Source of the DNA: Kiritimatiellia bacterium | GTDB lineage: Bacteria; Verrucomicrobiota; Kiritimatiellia; JAAZAB01 | Direction: 5' to 3' | NCBI GenBank assembly: GCA_040767085.1 | Contig: JAXGPF010000013.1 | Span: forward strand, 64,001 to 128,000 | DNA length: 64,000 bases | Shown here: positions 22,991-41,623 of the stretch, piece by piece | Position numbering within the stretch: the first letter of the stretch is position 1 | Layout: each line of letters opens with the position of its first letter | Notes under the pieces: model-generated | What the model saw: only the letters and a program-made list of their open reading frames with translations | Databases searched by the model: none | Told to the model about the DNA's origin: nothing | Position numbers and translations under genes: made by a program

Positions 22991-24448
22991 ATGTTGTTTC
23001 CCACCATTGATTTTGCCCTGTTTTTTCTGATCGTCTTCGTTGCATGCTGGTGGCTGCGCCGGCGCTCGGCGATTTGGAAATGGAGCATGCTGGCCGCCAG
23101 CTACTTCTTTTACGGCTATTGGGATTGGCGGTTTGTCGGATTGCTGGTTGGGTCCAGCGCGGCCAATCACCTGCTGGCGCTGTGGATTGACCGTGCGCTC
23201 CGAGCGGGCGTGCGTCGCCTGGCGCTGGCCGCGGCGGTGACGCTCAATCTGGGCGTACTGGTGTTTTTCAAGTATGCCGCCTTTTTCGCGCAGCAGGCCT
23301 TTTGGATGCAGCACCGCTTGTTCGCCAACGCCAGCGTGGAACAATGGCTGCCGCTGTTCAACTACCTCGGCAGCATCATCCTGCCGGTCGGCATTTCCTT
23401 CTTCACCTTCCAGGCCTTGAGCTACGTCCTTGATGTTTACCGCCGGCAGATGGCGCCAGCCCGCTGCTGGATGGATTTTGCGCTGTACCTGGCGTTTTTC
23501 CCGCAACTGGTCGCCGGCCCGATCGTGCGAGCCCGCGACTTGATGGGGCAGTTGGCCGTGCCGCTGACGCCGCGGCGGCTGGATCTCGGCCGCGCCGCGT
23601 CGATGATCCTGGGCGGGCTGTTCAAGAAAATCGTGGTGGCCAATTACCTGGCGGAAAAAATAGTGGACCCGGTGTTTGCGCGGCCGGATTTGTACGGCGC
23701 CTGGGATACCATCGTGGCGGTGTACGCTTATGCCATCCAGATTTACTGCGATTTTTCGGCTTATTCGGACATGGCCATCGGCTTTTGCCTCCTGCTGGGA
23801 TTTCATATTCCCTTGAATTTCGATGCGCCGTACCTGGCCGGCTCCATCCAGAAATTCTGGCGGCGCTGGCATATATCGCTCTCCTCTTTCCTGCGCGATT
23901 ACCTCTATATCCCCCTGGGCGGGTCGCGCTGCAGCGAGGCGCGCACCTGCATCAACCTGATGGTGACGTTCCTGCTGGGCGGGCTCTGGCATGGCGCGGG
24001 CTGGACCTTTATTATCTGGGGCGCCTTGCACGGTTTTTACCTGGTGGTGGAACGGCTGGGCGGTCAGTTGCTGGCCCGGTGCGGCCGGAACTGGTCCGGC
24101 GCCGGCGCCGGCATCCTGCGGGGGCTGGCCGTCTGGCACCTGGTCTGCTTTTCCTGGCTGTTTTTCCGTTGCCAGAGTTTCGGCGGCGCGGCGGCCATGC
24201 TGCAGGCCCTGGCGCGCTGGCGGCAGCCGGTGGAATGCGTCAGCGGCATGGTCCTGGCGGTGATTGCGGTCGGATACCTGACGCAATTGCTTGACGGCCG
24301 GCGCTGCGAGCGGTGGTGGAACGTTTTCGGGCGCTGGCATCCGCTCTGGCAGGGCGCGGCGGCCGCGGCGGTGTTGACTTTGATCCTGGGGCTGGGCCCC
24401 AAGGGCGTCGCCCCATTTATTTGTTTCCTCACCAGAATTTGTGGGTGA
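22991..24448 (+). CDS. MBOAT O-acyltransferase (AlgI/PatA/DltB family); native C-terminus (YFQF*, ending 25978) cut off by ISL3
   Basis: LPVGISFFTFQ, FFPQLVAGPI, YCDFSAYSD, FWRRWHISLS, GLWHGA; removing the IS restores APFIYFQF*. Confidence 0.92.
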   Translation: MLFPTIDFALFFLIVFVACWWLRRRSAIWKWSMLAASYFFYGYWDWRFVGLLVGSSAANHLLALWIDRALRAGVRRLALAAAVTLNLGVLVFFKYAAFFAQQAFWMQHRLFANASVEQWLPLFNYLGSIILPVGISFFTFQALSYVLDVYRRQMAPARCWMDFALYLAFFPQLVAGPIVRARDLMGQLAVPLTPRRLDLGRAASMILGGLFKKIVVANYLAEKIVDPVFARPDLYGAWDTIVAVYAYAIQIYCDFSAYSDMAIGFCLLLGFHIPLNFDAPYLAGSIQKFWRRWHISLSSFLRDYLYIPLGGSRCSEARTCINLMVTFLLGGLWHGAGWTFIIWGALHGFYLVVERLGGQLLARCGRNWSGAGAGILRGLAVWHLVCFSWLFFRCQSFGGAAAMLQALARWRQPVECVSGMVLAVIAVGYLTQLLDGRRCERWWNVFGRWHPLWQGAAAAAVLTLILGLGPKGVAPFICFLTRICG

Positions 24449-25956
24449 TTACCGGTTCGGGCAATTGCCCAAGGGTATGATATAGCGCCATTTCCGCGCC
24501 ATGAAAAGTTCTGAAGCCATAAGATCGTTTGGTAACCACTCGAGCTTTATTGTTCAAGCCCTCGGTTGCGCCAGTAAAAACCTCGTTTCTGGCTCTGATC
24601 CAGTTCAAAAGCAGCTCCTCGTGTTTAGCAATGGTTTTAGCCGCCTTAATGATTGGCGCAATGCGGCTACGACAGGCGCGCTTGACCCATGCCTGGAGAT
24701 AATTACGCGCCCAGGTTGGGCTGTGATAGCTCCAAAAATGCTGAAAGCTTTCCTTGAACAAATAGGCGCGGCCGGTTTGCAGTCTTGTGCCCAATATCCG
24801 ATCAAGCATTTCGCGAGCTTTGCCGCGCACGCGGGTTTTGCGGCGCAGCAAGGTCCAGCGCATTTTCTTGAGTTTTTGCTTGGCCGCCGGACGCGCTGTC
24901 ATCGCCGCCATATCCCGGCGCCGGACCTCGTCCACGGCGGCATTCAAGGTTTGCACGACATGGAAGCGGTCAATCATGTGGCAACCGTGGCTGAGGCTCG
25001 CAGCAATGACTTTCAGATAAGGTCGCCACATATCGCTACATATATGTCGAATGCCGGCCAGCACGGGTTTTCCCAAAGATTGCAACCCTTTACGCAGCGC
25101 GGCCGCCCGGCGGGTTTGGCCGACCCAGAGCAATCGGCGGCATTGCGCATCAATCTGATAGATCAAGGTCAGATAGTTCTTGCTCTTTTTACCGTTGCCT
25201 ACGTGGAGTTCATCAACACCAATCGCCGTTATATTGGCCAATTCCCGGTGCGCCAAGCCCCATTCCACCATCCACTCGACCGACCGATAAACCGCCTGCC
25301 AACTGACTTTGAAAATCAGCGCCGTCTCTTTCCAGGACAACCTCCGCGCCCAGTTCCCCAAAAAAAGCATCAGCGCCTTGCTGTAGGGTCGTTTGCCATC
25401 GCTCCAAGGCAGCGCTTCCACCACCACGCCATGTTCGGGGCAATTTACCCGGCGCGGACTATAATGCAAAAAAGCCGGCACATTCAAAATGGGCACAAAC
25501 GCCCATATCCGTTCAGGCAGAGTGTCGTATGTCGCCAGCGGTCGCCCGCAACGCGAGCAGCATGCCGCGCGTTGGCGATGCGGACGAATGCTTATATCCA
25601 CTTTCCATTGGCCGCGACGATCCAAAACCATACAAGTTTCCTGATAAATAAAACGTTTCAAAGGTTGCAAACGATTCAAAATTGTTTTAAGTTTCACCTT
25701 GGGCTGGTCCTCCTTTTTTTGTGTTCACCCATTGCATACGCAATGGATTACGGAAAGGCCAGCCTATTTTTTTGCCGCCGCTTTATCTCCGTTCCGCCAT
25801 CGCGCCAATCAGGAGTTATTAATCAGGCTGCTGCGGGGCCGCCAAACGCCCAAAGCGGCAGGCTGTTAATAACTCCACCATCTTTTGGCGCCATTGCTTG
25901 GAGAACTTCTTAAACTTTAAAACCTGTTTTTTACCCACAAATTCTGGTTAGGAGCC
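24423..25956 (-). mobile_element. ISL3-family insertion sequence, 1534 bp
   Basis: Imperfect ~26-bp terminal inverted repeats (ggctcctaaccagaatttgtgggt / gtttcctcaccagaatttgtgggt); 8-bp direct repeat ATTTATTT at 24415-24422 and 25957-25964. Confidence 0.92.
24429..25697 (-). CDS. ISL3-family transposase
   Basis: CSRCG..CPEHG zinc finger, IGVDE, CSDMW, IDRFHV, TEGLNNK..RSYGFR. Confidence 0.93.
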   Translation of the reverse strand: MKLKTILNRLQPLKRFIYQETCMVLDRRGQWKVDISIRPHRQRAACCSRCGRPLATYDTLPERIWAFVPILNVPAFLHYSPRRVNCPEHGVVVEALPWSDGKRPYSKALMLFLGNWARRLSWKETALIFKVSWQAVYRSVEWMVEWGLAHRELANITAIGVDELHVGNGKKSKNYLTLIYQIDAQCRRLLWVGQTRRAAALRKGLQSLGKPVLAGIRHICSDMWRPYLKVIAASLSHGCHMIDRFHVVQTLNAAVDEVRRRDMAAMTARPAAKQKLKKMRWTLLRRKTRVRGKAREMLDRILGTRLQTGRAYLFKESFQHFWSYHSPTWARNYLQAWVKRACRSRIAPIIKAAKTIAKHEELLLNWIRARNEVFTGATEGLNNKARVVTKRSYGFRTFHGAEMALYHTLGQLPEPVITHKFW

Positions 25957-26059
25957 ATTTATTTATTTCCAATTTTAACTTCTACATGGTAAATTTACTA
26001 AATCAGCTCGGGACGGCGGCGCGGCCGCCGGCGCGCGCCGGATAGCGCAGGAGACCAGG

Positions 26060-26338
26060 ATGGCGCAAAACGTTAAACCGGATGACCGGCGGGATATCGG
26101 TGAAATGAGGGCGGAAGCGCAGGCGGGCGTTTCGCTGCGCCGCCTGGCTGCGGCCTTGCTGGTGTTTTACCTGGTCGCCGGGATTTTGAACGGCCGGCAT
26201 TTGTACGAGGCGGCGGAAAGGCGCCCCTACGGGCGCGTGCGGGATATCTGGCTGGCAGCGCTGGCGCCGGCGCGCAGTCTCTCCGTTGCGCTTGGCGCGG
26301 ACCGGTTCCGTGCGATGTTGGAACATCTGAGGGATTAA
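26060..26338 (+). CDS. Small membrane protein in the acetylation operon
   Basis: AGGAG RBS; one TM followed by LNGRHLYEAAERRPYG; lies between the MBOAT and SGNH genes. Confidence 0.65.
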   Translation: MAQNVKPDDRRDIGEMRAEAQAGVSLRRLAAALLVFYLVAGILNGRHLYEAAERRPYGRVRDIWLAALAPARSLSVALGADRFRAMLEHLRD

Positions 26339-26353
26339 CATAGGAGCAGCGGC

Positions 26354-27097
26354 ATGAAAACGAGCATGGCGGGACAATGGGCGGTATGGTTGGCGGCGTG
26401 GACCGCCGCTACAGCAATGTGGGCCGCGCCGGCGGAGGCGCCGGCTGCTCCCGCGCGCGTTTTGATCATCGGCGATTCGATGATGAAACTGCCGGCGCAT
26501 GCGATCGAGCTGGCGTTGGCGGGACGCGCGGGTGTGACGACGCGCGCCTACACCTCCATTGGCACCGGGCTGGCCCGCTTGGATTCGTTCGATTGGATGG
26601 AAAAAACCCGGACCCTGCAGCAGGAATTCAACCCGGATATCACCCTGGTCTGCTTTGGCACCAACGACCGCCAACCCATGCAGACCGCCGACCGCATCGT
26701 CAAGGTGGAAGACGCGGAATGGGAGCAGGAGTACGCCCGGCGGGTGGGCGCCTTGATGGACTTGATCATCGCGCGCCCCGCAGCCCGCATACTGTGGCTG
26801 GAATTGCCCGATATGCGCGATGAAAAAATTCAAGCGGATGTGCTGCTGATCAACCGCCTGGTTCAGGAAGAAGCCGCCAAGCGTCCGCCGGTGGAGTTTT
26901 TCGGCACGCGGGCGATCCTGGGGCACCGCCCCGGCAAGTTCACGCCGTACGTCATCGGAACCAAAGGCTTGCCGGTCCAGGTGCGGGATCCGGATGGCAT
27001 GCATTTGAATCGCGCCGGCGCCGACCGCCTGGCGGAACATATCGTTAAGGCAATCTATGGAACAGCGACGGACGCCGGGACAAGTCAGGGCCGGTAA
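26354..27097 (+). CDS. SGNH/GDSL acetyltransferase (DUF459/PatB-like)
   Basis: Signal peptide; IGDS, GTGL, FGTND, DGMH blocks. Confidence 0.85.
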   Translation: MKTSMAGQWAVWLAAWTAATAMWAAPAEAPAAPARVLIIGDSMMKLPAHAIELALAGRAGVTTRAYTSIGTGLARLDSFDWMEKTRTLQQEFNPDITLVCFGTNDRQPMQTADRIVKVEDAEWEQEYARRVGALMDLIIARPAARILWLELPDMRDEKIQADVLLINRLVQEEAAKRPPVEFFGTRAILGHRPGKFTPYVIGTKGLPVQVRDPDGMHLNRAGADRLAEHIVKAIYGTATDAGTSQGR

Positions 27098-27107
27098 AAT
27101 TTTGCGG

Positions 27108-30100
27108 ATGGGCCCGCGGTGGATTTGGGCCTGTCTGGGCTGGTTTGGCGCCGCCGCGGCGCCGGCCGCGCTGGCGCAGGACGCCGCCGCGCCGTCCTCC
27201 AATCCCCCTCCGGCAATCGCCACCGAAGCGGCCGCGGCCGCCGGCGGGCCCGCGGTTGCCGCCGCGCCGACCAACCTGGCGCCGGTGAGCGCCATCGATG
27301 CCGGCGGCCGGATGCGCGCCAAGCTGTACGAGGCCATGCTCAACGTGCAGGACAAGCAGTACGAGGCGGCCATCCCCAAGCTGGAGGCGGTGATCACGGA
27401 AGACCCAACCCTGCTGGAAGCCTGGTCCACGCTAGGCTGGGCTTACTGGGCCCTGGACCGCAAAAAGGAGGCGGCGGCGCTCTGGCAGCGCCTGGTGAAC
27501 ATAGCGCCCAACGAGCCGATGGGCTACAGCCTGATGGCCCAGGTCGCCGTGCATGACGGCGATCTCTCGCGCGCCGAAGAGCTTTACCGCAAAAGCCTGG
27601 CGCTTAATCCCGACCAGTATGAAATGCGCATATCCCTGGCGCGCGTTTTGCTGTGGAGCGGTAAAACCGGGCAGGCCAGCAAGGATTTGCGCCGCCTGCT
27701 GGATGAAGATCCTGACCGGCTGGACGTGGAAATCGACCTGGCCTGGGCCATGTACGCCAACGAGGAATACGAGGATGTGCTGGATGTCTGGAACCACATC
27801 AACGAGGTCGTGCCCGATCAGCCCGGCTACATGGTGGCGCGCGCGCAAGTCCTGCTGTTGATCGGGTCGCTGACGGAAGCCGAAAGCGAAGCCCGCCGCA
27901 TTCTGGAAATCGATCCGGACAACCGGGACGCTTTCAACCTGCTGGCGAACCTGGCCATGCGCGCGCGCCGCCCCGAGGAAGCGGTGGACGCTTTGCGCAA
28001 GGTATACGATCTGGCTAAAAAAGACGATGCCCGGGCCCGGGTGGCGCTGCAAATCGCGAATTACATGAAAGCCGTGTATGACACGGATAAGACCGTTTTT
28101 ACCCTGGCACAATGCCTGGAAGCCGCCCGCGACGCATATCAACTGGACCCGGAGAATGTTTCCGTCAAACTGTTTTATGGCGAACTCATGACCGCCGACC
28201 GCCAATTCGGCCCCGCCGAAGAAATTTTCCAGTCAGTGCTCCGCGAGAACAATCCTTTCAACCTCCGCGCCCACACGGACCTGGTGCAAATCCTGCTGGC
28301 GCGCATGCAACTCGATGCGGCGGAGAAAAAGATGAACGACAATCTCCGCCTGTTCAATGCCAACAATCCTTACCGGCACCTGTTCTGGGCGCAGTTGCAT
28401 TTTGCCCGCGGCAATACCCCCGCCGCCATGGACGCCCTGGAGCGCCTGGAGCGCGAAGGGTCCGCGGGCGCGGTCTTCACCTTGTTGTACCACGGGATTT
28501 CGCCCAGCGAATGGGGGGATGTGCCGTCGGTCCGCCAGTTCCGCGAGCACTTGATGGTGCTGCGGCGCGCGGGATTCAAGTTCATCACCCCGTCCCAATT
28601 CGACGATTACTTCGCCAAACATGCCAAGCCGCCGCCGGTGGAAGAGCCGCGGCCGCTGCTGAACCGCGCCGTACAGGGCCTGCGCCACGCCTGGAGCGGC
28701 CAGCGGACGGAGACGACTCCGCGCCTGTCCGATTATACACCGGACCTGACGGTTTGCGTGACGATGGACGATGCGCTCCGCAATTCCCTGCGTTACGGCA
28801 ACTTTGTGGCGGAGGAATTGCAGGTGCCGCTGACCATGTTTTTGCCGGTGGGCAACGTCCTGAAACACGACACCTACACGGCTTCGTTCCAGGAAATCCG
28901 GGAGTACCAGGCGTCGGGGCTGTGGGAACTGCAAAGCCATCTCATGCAGGCCAGCTATACCGCGATGACCAACCGGCAGGGGCGGGAGGTCAATCCCCTG
29001 CCGAATCTCATCTGGCTGCCGGAAAAAAAACGGCAGGAATCCCTGCGCGAGTACCACGCCCGGTTGCGGCATGAATTCCGCGATTCGCGGCGGATTCTGG
29101 CGCGCGAACTGGGTTTGGAAGAATCCGCCCTCAACGCCGTGGCTTACCCGGTCGGCGACATCGGCCAGGAGACTTCCTGCAATATTGACGTGTTCAACGT
29201 CCCGGAAGTGATTCTGAACGAGGCCGAGGTTAGCTACCGCATGGGCTTTATCCAGGACGAGTTTGGCTATTCCATGCCCTCCGACAATCCCATGCTTTAC
29301 AAGCGCTATGAACCGAAGCGCTTTACCACCGGCCGCGAAGTGTACCGGGCGGCCATGCGCAACCATCCCGTTTTCTGCGCGCGCCGGATGCGGGCGGAAA
29401 TCGCCGCTCTGAGCGGCCAATTACACCTGGCGCAGGAAATGGTGCAACTGCTGAAGCGCGATGGCTACCCCGAGGAAGACCTGGCGGTAATTAACGCCTT
29501 GGTGCAGAAGCATGTCGCCCGCCTGATGCCCCCGCCCGAAACCGCACCGGGTCATGACATCCACAAAGAGGCGTTCCTGGAGCCGCGGGAACCTTTCCTG
29601 GCGGCCGAAGGGGACTACACCAAGGCGAACGTGATGATCGAATCCTGGCATGGCGGCGCCGCCGCCGGTTTGAATGTGAACCCGCGGTTGAGCCTGGAAG
29701 TGCGCGCCGGCGTCGGCGGCATCAAGCAAACCGTAAAATCCAACATGGTGGTGAAAGTCGAGCAGACCAGCGAGTCTTCGTCCTATTCCGATATCACGAT
29801 CATCACCGACGGCGAGACATCACAACAGCAGCAATACAGCACCACAATCACCACGGTCATGCTGCAATCCAACAAGGTCACCGAATACAAATACAAGGCG
29901 GACGAGCAAATGATCGGCGCCGCGCTGAATTACATTCACGCCCATGGCGCGAACACCATCATGGATTTGCGCTACCGCTCTTTCAAGGGCGACGAATTCG
30001 AGGACAACACCGGCGCCGTGGCCGGCGCCCTGGAGCACCAGTGGCGCCCGGTGCCCGCGTTCGACACTTCCGTGCGCTACCAGCATGACCTCGTGCCCTC

Positions 30101-30662
30101 GGCGCGCGAACTGCTGGAATACGACGGGTTCGCCCTGCGGGCGATCTGGCGGATTCAGGATTGGTGGCATGCCAGCGCGCTGGGCGCTTTTTCCGTCTTT
30201 GAGGATGATAATTCGCACCTGCACGCCAATATTGAAAACCTCTGGCGGATGTCGCCCCGGCACAATGTCTGGTTCGGCTTGCATGACTCCGTGGATACGG
30301 TGGACCGGAAAAGCGATTTGTACTGGACACCCTACTGGGACCAGCGGCATTACCTGGTGCTGCGGCTGAGCCAGAGCTATCCGAATTACACCGGCGCCGT
30401 GCGGTTTCATCTGGGTTTGCAGAAAGACAAGGCGCGCCAGGAAGACTTGGATGCCTACAACACCGCCAAGGCCAGCGCCGAGAAGGGCGGCTGGTATCCC
30501 GGCAGCAATCCCCAGCAGGATTGGGCTTCGCTGCTGGGCTTGGGCGTAACCCTCTCGCGCCGGTGGGCCAGCGGCTGGGATTTGACCGCGGAATTCTCCG
30601 TGAATGCCATCCGCGATTACACCGAACACACGCTGGGCGGCCGGCTGATGTACCGGTTTTGA
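27108..30662 (+). CDS. Secreted TPR + polysaccharide deacetylase (CE4-like) + C-terminal beta-barrel fusion protein
   Basis: Signal peptide; many TPRs; LLYHGI, VTMDDA, QSH, VAYPVG; amphipathic beta-strands ending in YRF. Confidence 0.75.
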   Translation: MGPRWIWACLGWFGAAAAPAALAQDAAAPSSNPPPAIATEAAAAAGGPAVAAAPTNLAPVSAIDAGGRMRAKLYEAMLNVQDKQYEAAIPKLEAVITEDPTLLEAWSTLGWAYWALDRKKEAAALWQRLVNIAPNEPMGYSLMAQVAVHDGDLSRAEELYRKSLALNPDQYEMRISLARVLLWSGKTGQASKDLRRLLDEDPDRLDVEIDLAWAMYANEEYEDVLDVWNHINEVVPDQPGYMVARAQVLLLIGSLTEAESEARRILEIDPDNRDAFNLLANLAMRARRPEEAVDALRKVYDLAKKDDARARVALQIANYMKAVYDTDKTVFTLAQCLEAARDAYQLDPENVSVKLFYGELMTADRQFGPAEEIFQSVLRENNPFNLRAHTDLVQILLARMQLDAAEKKMNDNLRLFNANNPYRHLFWAQLHFARGNTPAAMDALERLEREGSAGAVFTLLYHGISPSEWGDVPSVRQFREHLMVLRRAGFKFITPSQFDDYFAKHAKPPPVEEPRPLLNRAVQGLRHAWSGQRTETTPRLSDYTPDLTVCVTMDDALRNSLRYGNFVAEELQVPLTMFLPVGNVLKHDTYTASFQEIREYQASGLWELQSHLMQASYTAMTNRQGREVNPLPNLIWLPEKKRQESLREYHARLRHEFRDSRRILARELGLEESALNAVAYPVGDIGQETSCNIDVFNVPEVILNEAEVSYRMGFIQDEFGYSMPSDNPMLYKRYEPKRFTTGREVYRAAMRNHPVFCARRMRAEIAALSGQLHLAQEMVQLLKRDGYPEEDLAVINALVQKHVARLMPPPETAPGHDIHKEAFLEPREPFLAAEGDYTKANVMIESWHGGAAAGLNVNPRLSLEVRAGVGGIKQTVKSNMVVKVEQTSESSSYSDITIITDGETSQQQQYSTTITTVMLQSNKVTEYKYKADEQMIGAALNYIHAHGANTIMDLRYRSFKGDEFEDNTGAVAGALEHQWRPVPAFDTSVRYQHDLVPSARELLEYDGFALRAIWRIQDWWHASALGAFSVFEDDNSHLHANIENLWRMSPRHNVWFGLHDSVDTVDRKSDLYWTPYWDQRHYLVLRLSQSYPNYTGAVRFHLGLQKDKARQEDLDAYNTAKASAEKGGWYPGSNPQQDWASLLGLGVTLSRRWASGWDLTAEFSVNAIRDYTEHTLGGRLMYRF

Positions 30663-30669
30663 GTTGCCA

Positions 30670-33600
30670 TTACTCAAACAGCACTATGCCGTCTTGGGCG
30701 TTTTCAGCGGAAGCGGTGTCCGCCGCCGCTTCCGCCTGCCCGGCGGCTGCCGGAGCGATCAGCGGCAGGGTCCGCATGCGGCGGGGCCCGGCAAACATGC
30801 CGCTGAACGGGCAGAATTCCCGGACTTCGGCCATGCCCTGGTCTTTGTCAATGCGCATGACCATGATGGTCAGGCCGGTGCCCAGCAGGCGGCGTTCGAG
30901 TTGCTCGCACCATTCCGCGCCCGGCATCCGGCTGACCAACAGGGTAAAGCCGTTCAGCTCCAACCCTTGCGCCACGGCGAGCATGTCCGGTATTTTCAGC
31001 GTACGCAGCACGGCCGCGCGCACGCAGGGCAGCAGGCGAATCTGGTAATAGCGGCAGAGAATCCGCAAGTCCGTGAAATCGCCGGTGATTTCACGCCGGA
31101 TCGCGCCGTCTTCCTCCTGTGCGAACCAGGGCGGGGCGATGGCGTTCATGGCGCGCGTCCATGGCTGCAGGGCTTGAATGCAATCGGCATCGGTCCAGGT
31201 TTGTTCCCGGGGTTGGAATACTCCCACGCGGGCCGGCAGCGGTCCGCCGGCGACTTCCCGGAGATGGGCTTGTGCCACGCCGAATTGGGGTGACCAGGGC
31301 GCCAGACCCCACCAGCCCAAACCGAGCTCCGGCGGGATCGACAGGGGCGCGCCGAAGGCCGCCTGGTTGTTGATGTAACCCGACGCGCCGCCGCCGCGCA
31401 ATTCCAGTCGCAGCCGCACGCTTCCCGGCGGCTTGGTCCAAACGCGAGTCTGGTTGGCGACCGTCTGGCCGTTGCGCCAGATTTGCAGGTAAAGCTGGCC
31501 CACTTGTTCGTAACCGAAGCGGATCATGTTGCCGTCCCCCCGCCGGGCATAGAGCCAGAAAAATCCGCGCGCGTCTTCCAGGAGGGCCTCGATGAAACCG
31601 CTGTGCATCGTGTCGGAGCCGATCAGCCGCAGCACCGCTTCCGTCTGGGCCGGCGCGGCGGTCAGCAGCGGCGCTTGATCCTCACGATCGGCGGGGTCGC
31701 CGAAGACGATCCAATCGTCCGAGATGCGGCTGGCGTTGAATTCTTCGCGGGCGGGAGCGGCGCGCGGCAGCAGCGCGGCGGCGGCAGCGCGCTGCGCGGC
31801 ATTGGATGATTGTATGGCCAAGTCGTCGAGATAGTTCATGAGCGGCCATGATTCCGGCCAGCGCAGCAGGTTCCAGCGTTCGATGGTCTGGAGCATTTGG
31901 CGCTCCATGACGGGGTTAGCGCCGATCTTGATGATTTCCCGGAGGTTGTCGAAACGATCCGCCGGCGTCGGCAGCAGGCGGTGCATCAGGCCGCGCGCGT
32001 CCAGGTCGCCCGGGTTGTCGCGTATAAGCCGCCGGATTTTTTCCGTCGCGGCCGCCGGTTGCTTGTGAAAAATCAGCCGTTCCGCCTGCGCCAGGATGAT
32101 ATCCGGGTTATCGGGGAACAGGCGCTCGTACAAATCCAGCATTTCCCGGGCCTCGTCCCCGCGCTGCGCCTTGTCATACAGCAGGCGCGCACAACGCACC
32201 ACCAGATCGATCTGGCCGGGATTCTGTTCCAGGCTGGCGCTATAAGCGTCGATCGCGAGGCCGATTTCATTCTGTTGCAGGTAGACATCGCCGATCAGGG
32301 CCATCGGTTCGGCATTGCGCGGGTCCAGCGCGGCCCATTGCCGCCAGATTTTGACGGCGTTGTCGAAGTCGCCCCGCTGCAGTGCGGCGTAGCCTTCCTC
32401 GCGCAGGAGCGTGGCGCTGGCATCATCCGCCGCGCGGGGGTCCACGGCGTCGCCGCCGGTCAGTTCATGGAAGACAACCCGGCGGTCGCCCTGGCCGGGG
32501 GCGGCCGTGGCGGCCGCGATCAACCGGCTGAAGCCATTGGTGCGCGACGTTTGCAGCAGGGGCGAGTCGGCCGCCACCGCCACCGACAAGTTGCTCAGGC
32601 CCTGGAACAGTGACGCCAGCGCGGGCGCTTTTTCCCAAATGGGCGGTAAGCGCGCGATCAAGGTCAGGCCGCGTTCATCCAAGGCCTGGCTGAACAACTG
32701 CAGCCAGGTGGTGATCCGGGAAAGCGGCACGGCTTCATCCAGTTGGCTGAGATTGCATAGCACGCCCTGCGCCGGCAGGCCGGCGGCGGCGCCGGCAATT
32801 TCGCCGGACAGGCCGTTTTCGAAGCCATCCAGGTTTTCCATGACGATTTCCGGCTGGAATTCCAGGCGATGAATCCGGGCGACGGTGCTGTAAAATTCGG
32901 CATCCCAGCCGAATTGTTCGGCATGGCCGCTGGCAAACACCCTTAACCAGGGAGGGGAAAAATGCGTGTAACGGAAGGCGTTGCGGCTGAGCCAGTAGGC
33001 CAGGGCGGTGTCGCGGCTGCCGGCCGGGTTGAAGGTGATTAACGCCGGTGCGGCCGGCGCGAGGTCCAGGGCGGCGATTTCCGCGCTGGCATGCCCGCGC
33101 CGGGGATGCCAGAGGCTGCAGCCGACCATGCCGGGGCGGATGTCCCCGCGGGTGAAAATGATTTCCTGGAAGATCGGGTGGCCGCCGGCCGTGGCGAAAA
33201 ACAGGCGGTCTCGCAGATAAACATCCAGTTGCGCTTCGCCGTCCGGCCGGGGGGTATAGCGCCCGGCGCCCAGGGTGAAGGGCTGCATGCCGGCGTGTTT
33301 CTGGCGGAGCCAGGCTTCTCCTTCCGGGGTCAGCACGAGGTACAGGTATGATTCGCCGTCAGGCGAGGCGCGGAAAAACATGCCGAACTGTCCGGCCGTG
33401 ATGCGCACCTGCAGGCGCAGGTGAAAGTCATTGTAGAGGTCGCTGCCGTTCAGCCAGACCTTGGCGCCGGTCGTGTCGGGCCGGGCTTGCAGGACGGCGG
33501 AGTTCCCCGTGAGCTTGAAATCCCCCCAATCCAGCAGCCAGGCAAGAGGGGTCTCCATGATTTGCGGGCTGGCGTAACCGGTCTTCCTGGGCCAGGCATG

Positions 33601-34596
33601 TTCCAGCCGCTGCAGCAGGTCGTCCGCCGTCCAGTCCGAATGCACCAACAGGCGGTTCAAGCGCCGGGGATCGTTGTACCGGGTGTTCAGGGCAGTGTTG
33701 CCGTGGATGAAGCCCAGGTCATAGAAATGGGATATCAGGTCCAGGTTCAGCCGGCGGGTAAACACCGCGCGTTCGTCGTACTGCCCGAAATCGCCGTAGG
33801 GGAAGGCGTAGGCGGCAGGTTGGAGGCCAAGTTCGCCGGAGATGATTTTGCGGCATTGCTGGTGATCGTCCAGCAGGCGCTGGCGGAAAGCTTCCGGCGT
33901 TTCGTAGCGCATTTCTCCGGGAAACCAGCGCGGGGTGGTCATGAAATTCCGACGCTCGCCGGCGCTGTTGGCCAGGACCGTTTCGAAACCCTGGTGGCTC
34001 TGGGCGCCGGCTTCCCAGGCGCCGCCGCGCAGCATGGCGCGGACATACGGCCAGCGCAGCGCCGAGGGATCCTCATCGAGGATGGGCTTGGTCCACAGGA
34101 ACATGACAGCCGTCCAGCCGGCGCGCTGCAGAACGCGGCGCGCATCGAAATACGATGATTTGCGGGAGTGGTCGAACGTCATCAGGATGGCCTTGCGGGG
34201 CAGAGGCCGGTTTTCGCGGTAAAACGCCGTGATGTCCCGCAGCGTGATCGGGTGGTACCCGGCGGTCTGTAAGGCCGCCATTTGCATGCGGAAACGCTCG
34301 GGGGTAACTTCGCCGGGAATGGTGGAAATGCCCTCGTAAGCCAGCGCTACGAACTCGTGCGCATCGCGCGGGCCGGCATCCGCCGGTCGGAACATCAGGA
34401 AACGCGTCAAGGCGTAGCGGAGGGGCACCCACCAGGCGACCGCCAGGCAGATGGCCAGCAGGAAATACAGCCAGGCTTGCCGGTAACTGGCTTTCAGCGC
34501 CTGGACGCGCGCCGGGGCGATCGGCAATTTGTCGGCAAACCTGGGCGGGTGCCCCGGGTTTGCCTGTTCGTCGCTGCGATTGCTTTCGAGTTTCAT
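30670..34596 (-). CDS. Membrane-anchored degenerate polysaccharide deacetylase + (beta-sandwich/GH18-like) x2 + TPR protein
   Basis: The real start is likely MKLES at 34596 (ATGA overlap with the GT2 stop); TM; GYHPITL..PLPRKAILMTFDHS; AYAFPYG; TPRs; internal duplication. Confidence 0.75.
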   Translation of the reverse strand: MKLESNRSDEQANPGHPPRFADKLPIAPARVQALKASYRQAWLYFLLAICLAVAWWVPLRYALTRFLMFRPADAGPRDAHEFVALAYEGISTIPGEVTPERFRMQMAALQTAGYHPITLRDITAFYRENRPLPRKAILMTFDHSRKSSYFDARRVLQRAGWTAVMFLWTKPILDEDPSALRWPYVRAMLRGGAWEAGAQSHQGFETVLANSAGERRNFMTTPRWFPGEMRYETPEAFRQRLLDDHQQCRKIISGELGLQPAAYAFPYGDFGQYDERAVFTRRLNLDLISHFYDLGFIHGNTALNTRYNDPRRLNRLLVHSDWTADDLLQRLEHAWPRKTGYASPQIMETPLAWLLDWGDFKLTGNSAVLQARPDTTGAKVWLNGSDLYNDFHLRLQVRITAGQFGMFFRASPDGESYLYLVLTPEGEAWLRQKHAGMQPFTLGAGRYTPRPDGEAQLDVYLRDRLFFATAGGHPIFQEIIFTRGDIRPGMVGCSLWHPRRGHASAEIAALDLAPAAPALITFNPAGSRDTALAYWLSRNAFRYTHFSPPWLRVFASGHAEQFGWDAEFYSTVARIHRLEFQPEIVMENLDGFENGLSGEIAGAAAGLPAQGVLCNLSQLDEAVPLSRITTWLQLFSQALDERGLTLIARLPPIWEKAPALASLFQGLSNLSVAVAADSPLLQTSRTNGFSRLIAAATAAPGQGDRRVVFHELTGGDAVDPRAADDASATLLREEGYAALQRGDFDNAVKIWRQWAALDPRNAEPMALIGDVYLQQNEIGLAIDAYSASLEQNPGQIDLVVRCARLLYDKAQRGDEAREMLDLYERLFPDNPDIILAQAERLIFHKQPAAATEKIRRLIRDNPGDLDARGLMHRLLPTPADRFDNLREIIKIGANPVMERQMLQTIERWNLLRWPESWPLMNYLDDLAIQSSNAAQRAAAAALLPRAAPAREEFNASRISDDWIVFGDPADREDQAPLLTAAPAQTEAVLRLIGSDTMHSGFIEALLEDARGFFWLYARRGDGNMIRFGYEQVGQLYLQIWRNGQTVANQTRVWTKPPGSVRLRLELRGGGASGYINNQAAFGAPLSIPPELGLGWWGLAPWSPQFGVAQAHLREVAGGPLPARVGVFQPREQTWTDADCIQALQPWTRAMNAIAPPWFAQEEDGAIRREITGDFTDLRILCRYYQIRLLPCVRAAVLRTLKIPDMLAVAQGLELNGFTLLVSRMPGAEWCEQLERRLLGTGLTIMVMRIDKDQGMAEVREFCPFSGMFAGPRRMRTLPLIAPAAAGQAEAAADTASAENAQDGIVLFE

Positions 34597-36086
34597 CCGG
34601 CCCCCCGCGTGCCCCATTTGCCATGGGAAAGGGTGATCAAGGCGTAATAAATCTGCCAACTGAAAAATGCGACATAGGTGAGCGTAAACACGAATCCCGC
34701 CCACCAATGCGTGCGGCCTGTTTTCTGCAGGTGGTAAAGCGACCAAATCAGCGTCATGGCCAGCACGCCGACGGCGTATGAAAGCGTCACGCCGCCGGTC
34801 GCCAGCGGCGCGAAGACGAGGGCCTGCAGGATGATAAACGGCTCGATTACCGGCAAAAACATCATGGCGTACCAGGACATCGCCGGCACGGGATGCTTGC
34901 GCCAGATGAATTTCGTGGCGGCGGCCATGCCGCGCAGGGAGGAGCGCATCCAGCGCGCCTGCTGCCGGGTGTATTGCCGCCAATTTTCGGGGACAATGGT
35001 GGTGGCCAGGGCGTCGTCGTCGTACAGGATCCGGTAATCGCGCAGCACCAGGTTGGTCAGGCTGCGGTCGTCGCCGTAGCGGCCTTCCACGCCGAATACC
35101 TTTTCGTTCATCCACTCCTCCATCACGTGCAGGACGCAGACGCGGCGGTAGGCGGAGAAGCAGCCCGGCAGGCAACTGACCATGCCGAAGATGCTTTCAG
35201 ATGCTTTCATGATTTTATACGAGAAGAAATAGCGCACATCCTGCATCTTGGTCAGCACGTTGACGCGGGCATTTTCCACGTCCGTATGTCCGGCAATGCC
35301 GCCCACCATCGGGTCAATGAAGCCCTGCACCAGTTTGCTGACGGCGCCGGGCATCAGGAAGGTGTCGGAATCCACGAAAACGATGATATCGCCGCGCGCC
35401 AGCAGGGCGGCGCAGGACATGCCGTAGGACAGGCCGCGGTTAAACTCGAAATCCACCACCACCAGGCGCGGGAAACGCGCCTGGGCGCGCATCATTTCCT
35501 CCAGGGTGCGGTCGGTGGAGCCGTCATTGACGGCGATGACTTCCAGCAAATCCGCGGGGTAGCCCTCGGCGTAAACCCGGGCGATCGAGCGCGCGATGGC
35601 TTTTTCCTCGTTCATGCAGGGGATGGCCACGGTGGTGGCCGGCTGGAACCCCACGCGGGGCGGCGGCGTATAAAAGGCGGCGAAAATGAAGCGGGAAACA
35701 ATGAAGATGCCGACGGCCAAGCTGTAGATATTGACTGTGGGCGCGTACCAGTAATGCTCCAGGTTGGTGATTTGAATGTACACCGCCGCGGTCAGCAGCA
35801 GGGTGCAGATCAGGCCGAGGCCCAACACCACCCAGATGGGCGGCTTGTTATATAGAAATTTACGGCGCTCGTCCGCGTGGGCTTCCTGGGCCAGTTCGAC
35901 GGGGGGCGGAGGCGTGAATGTGGAAAAGGCTAGCGCGCCGCGGCAGAAAGGACAGACCGCCGGCGCCGGCGCCTCGATGACGCTGATCGAGAGCCGGCAG
36001 GCGGGGCATCGGGCTTTGATGCCGGTGGCTCCGGCCGTTCCGGCCGATCCCGAATGGTTGCCAGGCTGGCGGATGAAAGAAGTCAT
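34593..36086 (-). CDS. Processive GT2 glycosyltransferase (hyaluronan synthase/NodC/chitin synthase-like) with an N-terminal CxxC-CxxC ribbon
   Basis: NDGSTD, VDSDT, CLPGCFSAYR, GDDRSLTN, QQARW; 2 N-terminal and several C-terminal TMs. Confidence 0.9.
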   Translation of the reverse strand: MTSFIRQPGNHSGSAGTAGATGIKARCPACRLSISVIEAPAPAVCPFCRGALAFSTFTPPPPVELAQEAHADERRKFLYNKPPIWVVLGLGLICTLLLTAAVYIQITNLEHYWYAPTVNIYSLAVGIFIVSRFIFAAFYTPPPRVGFQPATTVAIPCMNEEKAIARSIARVYAEGYPADLLEVIAVNDGSTDRTLEEMMRAQARFPRLVVVDFEFNRGLSYGMSCAALLARGDIIVFVDSDTFLMPGAVSKLVQGFIDPMVGGIAGHTDVENARVNVLTKMQDVRYFFSYKIMKASESIFGMVSCLPGCFSAYRRVCVLHVMEEWMNEKVFGVEGRYGDDRSLTNLVLRDYRILYDDDALATTIVPENWRQYTRQQARWMRSSLRGMAAATKFIWRKHPVPAMSWYAMMFLPVIEPFIILQALVFAPLATGGVTLSYAVGVLAMTLIWSLYHLQKTGRTHWWAGFVFTLTYVAFFSWQIYYALITLSHGKWGTRGAG

Positions 36087-38398
36087 AAAAGCAATACGGC
36101 GTTTGGCGCTTCAGGATCAATGGGCGAATTTTCCTCCACCGCGGATGTCGCCGGCGGTTCGATCGCAGGCAGCATGCGGGTGCGCCGCGGGGCGGGGAAC
36201 AAGCCGACATGCGCGCAAATCTCCCGCACGAGGGCGGATGGCTGGTTTTCGTCCAGCAGGACGATCATCAGCGTCAGGGTGGTATTCAGCAGGGTTTGCT
36301 CGGCGGCGGCCAGCCAGGCCGGGTCCGGCATCTTCTGCACCAGGAGCGTCAAGCCGTCGGTGCGGTTGGAGTGCGCCAGTGCGATCAACTGACCGAGTTC
36401 CAACCGGCGCGGGTCGCCGACTGCCACGGATGGCAGCAGGCGTACGCGGTAATACCGGCACAGCAGCCGCAAATCCAGATTCGCATTTGTTTTGATTTCG
36501 GCGATGGCGCCGTCCGGTTGCTGGCGGTACCAGGCCGGCGCCAGCGCGCTGAGTTCGTGCATGCGGCTTTTCAGCCGCTGGATTTTGTCTTCCGGCAAGA
36601 CGTCCGAGTCATCCGGGGCGGCGGCGAGCATGCCGATGCGCACCGGCAAGGGCCCGCCCTGCAGCTGGCGGACGATGGCGCCGGCCGTCCCCGGCTGCTG
36701 GCTCCAGGGCGCGAAGCCCCACCAGCCCAGGCCCATGTCATGCGGGATCGAGAGGGGTGCCGTAAAGGCGGGCGCGCCATCCACGAAACCGAAGGCGCCG
36801 TCGCCGCGCAGTTCCAGGCGCAGCCGGGCCATGCCGGGCTGGCGGTACCAGACGCGGCTGTAATTGACCTGCAATTGGCCGTTGATCCAGTTCTGCAGGT
36901 AAATCCGTCCGTCTTCGTCAAAGCCGAACCGCGTCATGTTGCCCGATCCGCGGCGGGCGTAAATCCAGAAAAACCCCCGGTTGCTTTCGATCAGCGTTTC
37001 GATGAAACCGTTGGGCATGGACTCCGAACGGACCAGGCGCAGGGCCACCTCCGATTGCTTGAGGGCGGTGTTCAGGATCAGGCGGCCGTCCTGCAGCAGA
37101 TTTTCATCCTTCGACGCCTCCCAGTCGCGCGACATGCGGCCGTGCCGGAATTCCTCGATCGCCAGGGTCTGGCGGGGCAGGAGGGCGGAGAAAAACTGGC
37201 GCTGTTCGGGAGATGCCGCCTGGTCGGCCGCCTGCGCGATGAAATTCAACAGCATCCAGGATTCCGGGTGGATCAGCAAGTCGTGTTCGCGGATATTGGA
37301 CGCCAGTGCCGATGCCATGCCCGGACGTTCGGCCGTCGCCAGCATGGCGCGCATGTTGTCGAACCGCTCGCGCATGCTGGGCAGCAAGCCGTGCAGCAGG
37401 GTTCGGGCCTGCAGCTTGTCGGAGTCGGACTTGTCCATGCCGCCGTTAATCACCTGTTTGGCCAGGGCGCGGGCCTCATCGTAGCGGTGCCGCCGCACCA
37501 GCCAGGCGGCCTGGGCCAGTGTCACCATGGAGTTGTTCGGGAAAATCCGCGCGTAAAAATTGAGCAGGTCGCGCGCCGGTCCGGATTGCCCGGCGGCGTT
37601 ATCCAGCAGGCGCGCGCAGCGCGTGGCCAGTTCGATTTGACCCGGGTAGATGCGCAGGCTCAGGCGGTAACATTCCATGGCCTGCTCGATATTACCGGTG
37701 TGCAGGTGGACGTCGCCGATCAGCGACAGGGCATCGGTGTTTTCCGGCTCCAGTTCATGCCATTGCTTCCAGACTTTGATCGCATTGGTGAAATCGCCGG
37801 CGTTGAAGGCGTTCCATCCTTCCTGGCGCAGACCCTGCGCCCTTAGCTCGGTGGTCCAGGTTTCATTGGAGCTGGTAAAGCCGCATAATTCATAATACAA
37901 CGCCAGTTCCATGTCGCGGTAGGGTTCGGCGGTGCCGCCGTCGGAAGGCGGCAGGGCGGCGGTAACGGCCGCCCTGATCCAGGCGCCGGTGTAGCTTTCG
38001 TGCCCGTGGACCAGCAGATGCCAGGTGCCGGCCGCCGGCTGGTCCAGTTGAATGTCCTCCGCGTTGCCCAGCACAAAAGGGCGGCAATCGTAGGCATGCA
38101 GCGTAGGCGGGGCGGCATGGCGCAGGTACAAGTCCGCGTCGCCCTCGCCCCCGTCCATCGCAATCGCCAGACGGACCTGCCCGGTTGGCACGGCAATGAT
38201 GAATTGCTGGAACGAGCCCGCCGCGCCGGAGAGATTGGAAATCGTCTGGCCGGCTTGCAGCGCGCGCGGCGCGGCCGCGTTCTCCACGGCCGCGGCCGGC
38301 GGGGCGGTTTCCTGCTCGGCGCCGGCCAGGCGCATGGCCAGCCCGGCACATAACAGCCGGACGGCCGCGCGCATCAATATGGCTTTACTCTTGAGCAT
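36083..38398 (-). CDS. Secreted PPC-domain + TPR + beta-sandwich/GH18-like protein; paralog of the C-terminal half of 30670-34596
   Basis: GGEGDADLYLRH..YDCRPF..GNAE PPC motif; LRQEGWNAF..GDF..WKQW matches LREEGYAAL..GDF..WRQW; GFFWIYARRG, LGLGWWG shared. Confidence 0.75.
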   Translation of the reverse strand: MLKSKAILMRAAVRLLCAGLAMRLAGAEQETAPPAAAVENAAAPRALQAGQTISNLSGAAGSFQQFIIAVPTGQVRLAIAMDGGEGDADLYLRHAAPPTLHAYDCRPFVLGNAEDIQLDQPAAGTWHLLVHGHESYTGAWIRAAVTAALPPSDGGTAEPYRDMELALYYELCGFTSSNETWTTELRAQGLRQEGWNAFNAGDFTNAIKVWKQWHELEPENTDALSLIGDVHLHTGNIEQAMECYRLSLRIYPGQIELATRCARLLDNAAGQSGPARDLLNFYARIFPNNSMVTLAQAAWLVRRHRYDEARALAKQVINGGMDKSDSDKLQARTLLHGLLPSMRERFDNMRAMLATAERPGMASALASNIREHDLLIHPESWMLLNFIAQAADQAASPEQRQFFSALLPRQTLAIEEFRHGRMSRDWEASKDENLLQDGRLILNTALKQSEVALRLVRSESMPNGFIETLIESNRGFFWIYARRGSGNMTRFGFDEDGRIYLQNWINGQLQVNYSRVWYRQPGMARLRLELRGDGAFGFVDGAPAFTAPLSIPHDMGLGWWGFAPWSQQPGTAGAIVRQLQGGPLPVRIGMLAAAPDDSDVLPEDKIQRLKSRMHELSALAPAWYRQQPDGAIAEIKTNANLDLRLLCRYYRVRLLPSVAVGDPRRLELGQLIALAHSNRTDGLTLLVQKMPDPAWLAAAEQTLLNTTLTLMIVLLDENQPSALVREICAHVGLFPAPRRTRMLPAIEPPATSAVEENSPIDPEAPNAVLLL

Positions 38399-40709
38399 GC
38401 TTGGTGGCCGCGGCGTCTTCAGCCGGCGCCGGCCGCGGCTGATTGGCCGCCTTTAAAACCGCCAGTAAATCACGGCGCAGGCCGTGGTTCAGGGCATAAA
38501 TCACATACCCGGCCGCGCCGGACCGCATGGCGTCCCGGGCCTGGCCCAGCGTCTGCAGCGGCGTCAGGCGGCTGGCGCCGGAAGCCGCGCCGATGCCCGG
38601 GGCCACCCGGCCGGCGGCGCCGGGCATCGCGGTCTGGGCCGCCGTCCAGGCGGTAAATTCACCCGGGTTGGCAGTGTAGTTCATCGGGCAAACGAAATCA
38701 AGCGCATCTTCCCGCAGCCATTGTCCCCAGTCCTGCCCTTCCGTTGCGATGCAGTCCGGGTAGCGGGGGTAAACGGCGGCGGAAATTTTGCGGCCGGGAT
38801 GTCGCCGGCGGAGCCGTTGCGCGCCGGCATTGACAAAATCGCTGATTTGCCGCGCCCGCCAGGCGCGGTATTGTTCCGCCAGCGCGCCGGTATAGGCCGC
38901 TGCGGGCCAGTCATCCGTTGCCGGCGCGCCGGCTGCCGCCAGAAAAGCCTTGCGGCAAGCCGGGCAGAAACAGTGCCGGCTATCGGGATAACGCACGTAA
39001 TCCAGGTGCATGCCGGCCGCCTCCACGGCATCCGCTAATTCTTCCAGGCGCGCCAACTCCTGTTCGCGGTTCTGGATTTGGGCGGGACACAGCCAGGCGG
39101 CTGCGGCGCCATCCACGGCTTGCTGCAGGCGGCCGGCTTGTTCCAGCTCCCGGAGTTGCGCTGGCGCCAAACCGTCCAGGTTCCAGCAGATATGCCAGAT
39201 GTGCGCCCGCAGACCATGGCGTCGGCAGGCTTCGAAAGCGTCTTGATCCGGCATGCCGGACCGCGGAACGTTAATGAAGACATCCGTCAGGCCGGCGGCG
39301 GCTAATTCCGGCGCCAACCGGCGCCAGTCGTCGGCCTGCATTTCCGCGCCCACCCAGATGCCGCGCCAGCCTTGGCCTGACTCCGGCATGCGCGCGGCGG
39401 CGCGGGCGTCCAGCGCCGCCGACAACTTGTCCGCCAGGCTCCAGGCGGCGGCGGATTCGCCTGACGCCAGGACGGCGCGGGCTTGGTCCCGCAAATGGCG
39501 CAGGGCGGCGCCGTCCGCGGCATGTTCCCAGTCCGGCGCGCTTTCGGACAGGATGTTGTCGAGCGTTTGGCGGACCGCGCCGGCCAGGATGCCTGGCTCA
39601 AATTGATCGAGCAGGACGGCCAGCATGCGGCGTTGCGCCGCCGCGTCGTCTTCCTGCAGGACATGAGTCATCCAGACGCCTTGCGGGGAACGCAGGCAGG
39701 CGGCTTCCGGCTGCCGGCGTCCCTGGGCGTCGCACCACCAGGCTAAAGTTTTGGTTTCCTTGCTGGCCGCGGCCGCCGTGATCAGGTTGGCGGTGGCGCC
39801 TTGGAAGACCTGGGGCGGACCCGCCCAGTCGGATGTCGGAGGGAAGCACATGGCATGCCACCGGCCCGGCTGTCCGGCGGCGGCATAAGCGCCGGGTTGC
39901 ACGCCCATGAGTTTGCCCAGTTTGGCGTCGCTGTTGTAGCAGACTACCAGGCGCCCCTGGCGGTCAAGGTGGCGTTGAATATTTTTCAACATCGCGGCGT
40001 TAAGATGCGGATGGCATGGCAGGATCAGAATCCGGCGCCGCCCCAGCACGTGCCGGGATTCCAGGTCCGTGTCGGACAGCATGGCGTAGGGTGCGCCCAT
40101 TGCCGTCAATTGCGTCCCGATCCAATCGGCGGCCCTGGCTCCGAAAGCCCGTTCGCCGGGATTGGCAAACACCGCCGGACCGGGCCGGGCCACCGCAATT
40201 GCCGCCGTCCTGGCCCGTGCCGCATGCAGCATCAAGCGTCCGGGGCCGCGTTTGGCCGACCAGGGGGATATACGGAAACCCGACGTTGCGCGCCATTCGG
40301 CCGGCGTATCCAGGGATTCAAAATCAGCCTTGGGAATCCAATGGCGGACGCGTCCCTGGCGGATCGGCAAAGCCGCCGCCCGCCAGCCTTGGCCGGCGCG
40401 GAAGTACCAGGTGGCGGATTGAAAAGCGCCGGGATTGTCGCAGGTGTACTCCAACTCCAGCCCGTCGGCCTCGCTTAAATCCAGTTGATTATCATAATCC
40501 CAATAATGCCGGTCGGCGCCATCCGGAAACGGGCATACAAAACATTGGCCATCCGCTCCGGCTTCCGCCGGCGGCGCGCCCGGGCCGGGTTGCCACGCGG
40601 AAACGGCCTCCGGCAGTAAAGGGATATCGGCGCATAACACCGGCCGGCAAACCGCGCACGCGATCCATAATGTCAACGCCCGCAGCGCGCCGGCATTATT
40701 CCCAGACAT
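38385..40709 (-). CDS. Glycoside hydrolase-like family 10 (GHL10/DUF187) protein with N-terminal accessory domains
   Basis: WRGIW, HGLRAHIW, WLCPA, GMHLDYVRYP, GQDWGQW, DFVCPMNY; start placed at MSGNN with an AAGAAGG RBS. Confidence 0.8.
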   Translation of the reverse strand: MSGNNAGALRALTLWIACAVCRPVLCADIPLLPEAVSAWQPGPGAPPAEAGADGQCFVCPFPDGADRHYWDYDNQLDLSEADGLELEYTCDNPGAFQSATWYFRAGQGWRAAALPIRQGRVRHWIPKADFESLDTPAEWRATSGFRISPWSAKRGPGRLMLHAARARTAAIAVARPGPAVFANPGERAFGARAADWIGTQLTAMGAPYAMLSDTDLESRHVLGRRRILILPCHPHLNAAMLKNIQRHLDRQGRLVVCYNSDAKLGKLMGVQPGAYAAAGQPGRWHAMCFPPTSDWAGPPQVFQGATANLITAAAASKETKTLAWWCDAQGRRQPEAACLRSPQGVWMTHVLQEDDAAAQRRMLAVLLDQFEPGILAGAVRQTLDNILSESAPDWEHAADGAALRHLRDQARAVLASGESAAAWSLADKLSAALDARAAARMPESGQGWRGIWVGAEMQADDWRRLAPELAAAGLTDVFINVPRSGMPDQDAFEACRRHGLRAHIWHICWNLDGLAPAQLRELEQAGRLQQAVDGAAAAWLCPAQIQNREQELARLEELADAVEAAGMHLDYVRYPDSRHCFCPACRKAFLAAAGAPATDDWPAAAYTGALAEQYRAWRARQISDFVNAGAQRLRRRHPGRKISAAVYPRYPDCIATEGQDWGQWLREDALDFVCPMNYTANPGEFTAWTAAQTAMPGAAGRVAPGIGAASGASRLTPLQTLGQARDAMRSGAAGYVIYALNHGLRRDLLAVLKAANQPRPAPAEDAAATKHAQE

Positions 40710-41619: not shown

Positions 41620-41623
41620 TTTT

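Follow-up and report, generated by a model that had tools for sequence, protein, structure and literature searches.

What becomes of an acyltransferase when a mobile element replaces its last few residues and leaves the rest of the chain as it was? This question is raised by a stretch of 64,000 nucleotides (hereafter "the window", meaning the whole stretch) from a Kiritimatiellia bacterium (contig JAXGPF010000013.1 of assembly GCA_040767085.1), in which a gene for an AlgI/PatA-type membrane-bound O-acyltransferase (MBOAT) carries an insertion sequence (IS) of the ISL3 family at its 3' end. With considerable confidence, we explain this arrangement as a recent, strain-level knock-out of the acyl-shuttle tail of the MBOAT by the IS, the disrupted allele coexisting with an intact one.

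The insertion and the altered C-terminus

The MBOAT gene is currently read as a 485-aa open reading frame on the plus strand (22991..24448), whose translation matches PF03062 (1.1e-30; 107.5 bits against a cut-off of 27 in the Pfam profile search). The IS (24423..25956, minus strand; 1534 bp), which was delimited by its exact copies in the genome and by target duplications, overlaps the end of this frame and has a G+C content of 0.53 (window, 0.62). A direct-repeat search found an 8-bp target-site duplication, ATTTATTT, on its left (24415..24422, in the codons ...P-F-I of the native tail) and on its right (25957..25964), and the start-to-start spacing of the two copies, 1542, equals 1534 + 8. 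Terminal inverted repeats lie at 24423..24446 and 25933..25956: the inverted-repeat search gave 21 nt (24426-24446 and 25933-25953) with 95% complementarity, and reading by eye takes them to both tips of the IS as imperfect repeats of 24 nt with 3 mismatches. The element encodes a 422-aa ISL3 transposase (24429..25697, minus strand), convergent with the MBOAT gene, with matches to PF01610 (1.1e-60), Zn_ribbon_ISL3 and NF033550 (E 8.2e-74; 248.9 bits against a cut-off of 180). Members of the ISL3 family, as catalogued in ISfinder, typically produce 8-bp target duplications and choose A/T-rich targets. The element in the window is like them in its DDE_Tnp_ISL3 transposase, ISL3 zinc ribbon, imperfect terminal inverted repeats, 8-bp duplications and A/T-rich targets, and it has no unusual feature. 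Antisense to the whole transposase gene runs a 470-aa frame without a family match (24501-25913, plus strand), which starts 53 nt past the new MBOAT stop and is probably a shadow frame.

As a result of the insertion, the last nine codons and the stop of the MBOAT frame are supplied by the IS. The translated protein ends in APFICFLTRICG followed by the stop, in place of APFIYFQF; the new stop is a TGA at 24446-24448, and the substitute tail CFLTRICG is encoded by the left terminal inverted repeat. Thus, FICFLTRICG stands where the native hexapeptide FIYFQF belonged, and the window allele lacks the C-terminal FxYxxF feature: Tyr has become Cys, the final Phe has become Thr, and the free C-terminus is shifted five residues outward. 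The native end of the gene, the acyl-shuttle hexapeptide FIYFQF with its stop, is left orphaned on the far side of the IS (25958..25978, plus strand), the insertion point being 14 nt ahead of the native stop. After removal of 24423-25956 and one ATTTATTT copy this end falls in the MBOAT frame, and the restored tail, GPKGVAPFIYFQF with the stop, is identical to that of the orthologues in three genomes of the same genus (G001, 84% identity; G004, 80%; and G003).

Apart from the tail, the MBOAT is intact. Residues 121-354 align to the DltB structures 8jem and 6bug (1.5e-27), the histidine of WHISLS included, and H294 is invariant in an alignment of 27 homologous sequences (A4); the invariant histidine of MBOATs is given a catalytic role in PMC12148441. 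Judged from its sequence, the gene is a polymer-acylating MBOAT by descent, but a disrupted member of that class. The preliminary description of this locus had claimed that the IS removes the FxYxxF motif, that excision of the IS with one ATTTATTT copy would restore APFIYFQF, and that the gene looks full-length (485 aa) to annotators. The translation and the orphaned FIYFQF with its stop agree with the first claim, the restoration proved exact and matches the tails of the same genus, and the protein collection does list the gene as a complete MBOAT of 485 aa. For annotation, this means that an MBOAT with a full domain match passes as intact though it lacks its key six residues, and a check for a terminal FxYxxF would be a cheap integrity test for the whole MBOAT enzyme class.

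Conservation of the tyrosine and the predicted loss of activity

How much the replaced residues matter was judged from the tails of homologues among relatives, in the protein collection, and at genome and metagenome loci; the sets, which share lineages, are not independent of each other. Among the relatives, all 16 complete tails end in F[IL]YF[QI]F, and three further loci are partial or frameshifted. In the protein collection, 118 of 119 non-self homologues end in FxYxxF (112 of them in FIYFQF), the sole exception being P0051, a truncated entry of 418 aa. At genome loci from many phyla, Tyr occupies position -4 in 78 of 78 complete tails, of which 71 are strict FxYxxF and seven are [PF]xYxx[FY]; two tails run off the end of the locus, and that of L108 was settled by hand. 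The metagenome loci, where six tails run off, have Tyr at -4 in 74 of 74 complete tails. The contigs from JGI metagenomes, whose best match is 54% identical, served for conservation of the motif and not for allele counts. In all sets, the only full-length copy without the motif is the window allele. None of the complete tails examined has Cys at the position of the Tyr, and no second disrupted tail was found among about 286 homologue tails. The contig breaks that divide the orthologue in G003 and in G002 were likewise checked for IS ends, with none found; the tail in G003 is intact.

The role of the tail is known from the PatA/PatB system. PMC12148441 describes PatA as acetylating itself, with acetyl-CoA as donor, on the invariant Tyr of the C-terminal hexapeptide; a variant with Phe in place of this Tyr takes up no label, and PatB, the SGNH protein, can receive the acetyl group from a synthetic acetylated hexapeptide. 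In the same paper, DltX is described, from the DltX work cited there, as having this FxYxxF "acyl shuttle" too, and the model is widened by its authors to further MBOAT-SGNH pairs. The preliminary description had taken the tyrosine motif to be an established acyl carrier, which these PatA and DltX results bear out, and had proposed an alignment of orthologues for FIYFQF as a check, which found the Tyr at -4 in every complete tail. Because the Tyr is kept in the tails of homologues and the Tyr of PatA is the acetyl carrier, loss of function of the window allele is very likely by analogy.

We therefore envisage events as follows, inferring the loss of activity, the polarity and the identity of the polymer. 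An expanding ISL3 element would have inserted in the A/T-rich last codons of the MBOAT gene, duplicating ATTTATTT and swapping the acyl-shuttle hexapeptide FIYFQF for FICFLTRICG. In the normal cycle, the tail would swing to the periplasmic SGNH partner, and the polymer would then be acetylated by that partner. Without the Tyr, and with nine foreign residues at the former free C-terminus, the MBOAT would no longer charge its SGNH partner, a DUF459 protein, and the exopolysaccharide served by the operon would be left un-acetylated. Furthermore, transcription of the three downstream genes would have to cross 1.5 kb of untranslated IS, so that their expression may also fall. The event is an ordinary inactivation of a gene by an IS during a burst and holds no new biology, but it hits exactly six mechanism-critical residues.

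The last of these steps could be the main effect rather than an accompanying one: the IS may uncouple or silence the genes for a small protein, the SGNH protein and the export barrel, with export impaired as well as acetylation. This explanation, which is compatible with the loss of the tail, is possible, though on the whole we doubt it. The MBOAT, small-protein and SGNH genes occur in this order at seven of eight orthologous loci; in orthologues the four genes are tightly packed (gaps of 3-79 nt, also after the MBOAT stop). In the window, the exporter gene starts within the last 41 nt of the SGNH gene, about 1.6 kb is untranslated between the new stop at 24448 and the next start, the transposase gene is transcribed convergently, and the antisense frame opposite to it has no family match. 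However, neither strand of the IS yielded a terminator-like site, and the downstream genes could be served by their own promoter, within the native spacer of 81 nt, or by one that reads outward from the IS. A consensus scan of 24300-26400 found no promoter-like site on the plus strand and a single one on the minus strand, inside the IS; the consensus may not be that of the host, and the scan is weak evidence either way.

Age and spread of the insertion

The 4.08-Mb genome contains 21 copies of the 1534-bp IS at 100% identity, and, in addition, one form 3 bases shorter, one split by a nested insertion, and two diverged forms (94% and 85%). A perfect 8-bp duplication accompanies 18 of the 21 exact copies and sets the boundaries of the IS; of the three copies without it, two form a tandem pair and the third lies against an IS fragment. 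With so many identical copies and duplications, the insertion is beyond chance. The identity of the 21 copies points to a recent burst, and the sequences suggest that a young ISL3 element is currently expanding in this genome. Partial copies (96-100% identity) are present at contig ends of two genomes of the same genus, and none was found in a third, G001.

The duplications allow the target preference of this young burst to be measured. Their G+C content averages 14.6% (genome, 61%); seven of the 18 contain neither G nor C, as do 0.35% of the genomic octamers, and 11 contain no more than one, as do 2.3%. The hexapeptide with its stop cannot exceed a G+C content of 0.38 under any codon choice, and in the same genus it has 0.10-0.14, in genes of 0.54-0.62. 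Two other pure-A/T octamers lie within the MBOAT gene, at 23655 and 24008. Thus, the MBOAT tail appears to be a natural but not a unique target of the IS. Of the other 20 copies, most lie just ahead of genes or within frames that have no family match; one interrupts a DUF1015 domain, and one is nested in a further copy of the IS. The Pfam check behind this statement covered 41 of the 44 frames that touch IS boundaries, the other three being those of the MBOAT locus (L019), and a test based on open frames for genes interrupted by IS copies was too noisy in this G+C-rich genome. As far as such a distribution can be read, it is the pattern of an A/T-seeking element that lands untargeted, and not that of a dedicated switch.

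Some of the copies are arranged in unusual ways. At G000:C22:289149-292222 (L013 and L014), two full copies lie head to tail, 6 nt apart and without target duplications, between a DUF1015 gene cut at profile position 120 of 325 on one side and a peptidase M19 gene on the other, which looks like an IS-mediated deletion or rearrangement. At G000:C22:62244-65319 (L016, L023 and L027), a copy is nested in another at the octamer ATTGTTTT, around position 1259, and at C25:123154-124963 and C28:131192-132986 a full or 94% copy is followed by the same 1259-1534 fragment; this suggests that position ~1259 is a self-target hot spot or that these are descendants of one nested structure. Finally, three identical copies in the same orientation occupy 6.4 kb of A/T-rich DNA that adjoins a gene with a Toprim domain (G000:C28:145686-152104, L001-L003), and this region is perhaps an A/T-rich island, or else an integrated element, that serves as a sink for the IS.

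Is the insertion fixed? Part of the stretch is present in 20 public runs from ten studies of landfill, sludge, digester and wastewater metagenomes, four of which were examined, as contigs. In run X1, which contains 0.93 of the words of the stretch and is possibly its source sample, a 394-nt contig joins 24412 to 25955, skipping 1542 nt (depth 7.86, 0 mismatches, flanks of 210 and 184 nt). This contig is the empty-site allele, for which the preliminary description had advised searching the reads. The depth of the IS in X1 is 88.7, against about 5-8 for the flanks. A downstream contig of X1 differs from the window at 26149 and 26183, and therefore at least part of the X1 population is a slightly different strain. 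Together with the 21 exact copies at different sites, the empty-site contig demonstrates the mobility of the element.

Run X2, a sludge metagenome from another study, has flanks free of mismatches over 1410 and 1446 nt and an IS depth of 0. Of its contigs, one of 2922 nt ends at 24409, and one of 3254 nt starts 12 letters before 25955, with letters unlike the end of the IS. These data would fit an empty site in a strain without the IS altogether, the two contigs abutting the site without bridging it. Since there is no mismatch over 2.8 kb of flank and no trace of an IS that has more than 20 copies in the present genome, the burst would have to postdate any point mutation in this flanking sequence. 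Two further runs, X5 and X8, have the IS at high depth, thin flanks and no contig at the junction, and are uninformative on the allele. The occupied junction is in none of the contigs listed for the four runs; contigs drop minority forms, so this absence proves nothing. Given the empty-site contig of X1 and the identical flanks of X2 without the IS, the insertion is recent and polymorphic, not fixed, and because X2 has the same flanks without any IS, the empty-site allele is most simply the ancestral one. A natural pair of alleles, one intact and one without the Tyr, is thus available in one species of an uncultured lineage of landfills, sludge and digesters, and could be used to probe the acetylation of exopolysaccharides.

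A broader possibility is that the 3' ends of MBOAT genes in G+C-rich genomes are built-in landing pads, because the hexapeptide and its stop can be written only in A/T-rich codons, and that populations carry standing on/off variation in acetylation and possibly in export. We consider this a long shot; if it were true, phage, grazers or reactor conditions could sort the on and off variants by selection. It is very improbable that the insertion is, as the preliminary description had suggested, a recurrent or reversible off-switch of surface acetylation with the motif codons as a landing pad for the IS. That description had rightly taken the A/T-rich motif codons for a natural ISL3 target, as the G+C ceiling and the octamer preference of the IS bear out, and both alleles do occur in nature. 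However, recurrence found no second case in about 286 homologue tails, that of G003 among the intact ones; the gene offers the IS two further pure-A/T octamers, and most of the other 20 copies lie where untargeted landing would leave them. Nor was there any sign of excision: the empty site seen in X1 is most simply ancestral, as said above, and 21 identical copies indicate copying rather than cut-and-return.

The window allele might also still be active, either with the Cys of F-I-C-F, which stands where orthologues have F-I-Y-F, carrying the acetyl group as a thioester, or with a paralogous MBOAT charging the SGNH partner. The genome does contain one other MBOAT, on a different contig, which is intact and ends in FIYFIF. 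We find this explanation scarcely credible: the examined tails have Tyr throughout and Cys never, the last Phe and the free C-terminus are lost as well, even the conservative Tyr-to-Phe change abolishes the labelling of PatA (PMC12148441), and the paralogue has an AlgX-type partner of its own beside it. An assembly artefact at the junction, in which one of more than 20 identical copies was collapsed or wrongly joined, is hardly conceivable, although the sole bridging contig in the examined runs is of the empty-site form, because a misjoin would not create the perfect 8-bp duplication, as seen at 17 other copies, and both flanks are collinear with the orthologous loci.

Several points nevertheless weigh against the explanation by a recent knock-out. 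The occupied junction rests on the assembly and on the perfect target duplication. X1 may be the source sample of the window and would then not be independent evidence of spread, and the X2 contigs abut the insertion site, none of them bridging it. The Cys at the former Tyr position could in principle accept an acyl group, and the intact second MBOAT with its AlgX-type partner leaves some cross-supply possible. Finally, the IS contains 0 terminator-like sites where shuffled sequences lead one to expect 3.8, which makes strong polarity harder to argue.

The operon and the neighboring exopolysaccharide genes

Downstream of the disrupted MBOAT gene, three genes follow on the plus strand. The first (26060..26338) encodes a small membrane protein of 92 aa, without a Pfam or NCBIfam match, that is kept between the MBOAT and SGNH genes at seven of the eight orthologous loci. 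In the alignment of this protein (A1; about 90-105 aa), eight columns are invariant, including N44, G58, P70 and R84, and it may be a third component of the MBOAT-SGNH system. The second (26354..27097) encodes the SGNH-fold partner of 247 aa, with an N-terminal signal sequence apparent by eye and a DUF459/GDSL_2 match (PF04311, 4.8e-51). Its GDS, N104 and D214/H217 blocks, invariant in alignment A2, are present in the window protein, which scores 72.5 bits against the PatB equivalog NF045704, far below the cut-off of 580. The possibility that the 92-aa and 247-aa frames, which lie in one reading frame separated by a stop, are one broken SGNH gene was ruled out by the two-gene layout in relatives and by the SGNH protein's own apparent signal sequence.

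The third gene (27057..30662) encodes a protein of 1201 aa in which families, a model and fold matches indicate TPRs, a stretch weakly like CE4 and, at the C-terminus, an export beta-barrel of the kind found in BcsC, PgaA and PelB. Profile searches gave no sequence family above the cut-off for the barrel. In the model of residues 601-1201 (31 aligned sequences; mean pLDDT 84.5), about 16 long strands are C-terminal, and the best fold matches are BcsC (9b8a and 6tzk), PgaA (4y25, TMt 0.71) and PelBC (9h80). Thus, the modelled protein has the layout of a BcsC/PgaA/PelB-type export porin, TPRs followed by a 16-strand-type barrel, and the downstream "exporter" of the preliminary description holds by predicted fold and not by any sequence family. 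About 117 homologues, mostly from metagenome-assembled genomes of Kiritimatiellia, Lentisphaerae and Verrucomicrobia, share this layout; many homologues have PF01522 and some PF13505. The functions of PgaA and PgaB, which are split in E. coli, appear to be fused in this one chain.

Convergent with these genes lies a second operon (30670..40976, minus strand). It encodes a PgaB-like deacetylase/TPR protein of 1501 aa, a GT2 synthase of 497 aa that resembles PgaC/NodC, a protein with TPRs and a PPC domain, and a protein of 863 aa that matches no family. From its gene content, this operon is a candidate novel synthase-dependent exopolysaccharide locus and, by adjacency, a candidate source of the polymer for the MBOAT system; that the substrate is a HexNAc-type exopolysaccharide is a guess from the same adjacency. 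The operon of MBOAT, small membrane protein, DUF459 SGNH protein and TPR/CE4-like/barrel exporter appears to be uncharacterised, and may itself merit more attention than the insertion.

Compared with PatA/PatB and the general MBOAT-SGNH shuttle (PMC12148441, and DltB-DltX-DltD as cited there), the system in the window is alike in its MBOAT core with the invariant His, its adjoining SGNH-fold partner and, in the empty-site allele, the C-terminal FxYxxF, and the predicted effect of the Tyr loss parallels the Tyr-to-Phe result for PatA. In contrast to that system, the partner is a DUF459 protein well under the PatB cut-off, a conserved 92-aa membrane protein is encoded between the MBOAT and SGNH genes, the last gene of the operon is for a TPR/beta-barrel exporter, a sign of an exopolysaccharide rather than of peptidoglycan, and the window allele has no motif. 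The modules for alginate (AlgI-AlgJ-AlgF-AlgX) and cellulose (WssH-WssI) likewise combine an MBOAT, an SGNH-type partner and a TPR-barrel export protein next to a processive GT2 synthase. However, the SGNH partner in the window is of the DUF459 and not of the AlgX/AlgJ type, the AlgX-type partner belonging to the paralogous system on the other contig; the synthase resembles PgaC/NodC and not Alg8 or BcsA; and no AlgF-like protein was recognized.

Beyond the exopolysaccharide genes, the window contains a gene for a KaiC-like ATPase (41603-42655), one for a 715-aa protein (43558-45705, minus strand) that combines an ice-binding-like adhesive domain with DUF7507, and one for a 411-aa protein with several helix-turn-helix domains (45877-47112), which looks like another transposase.

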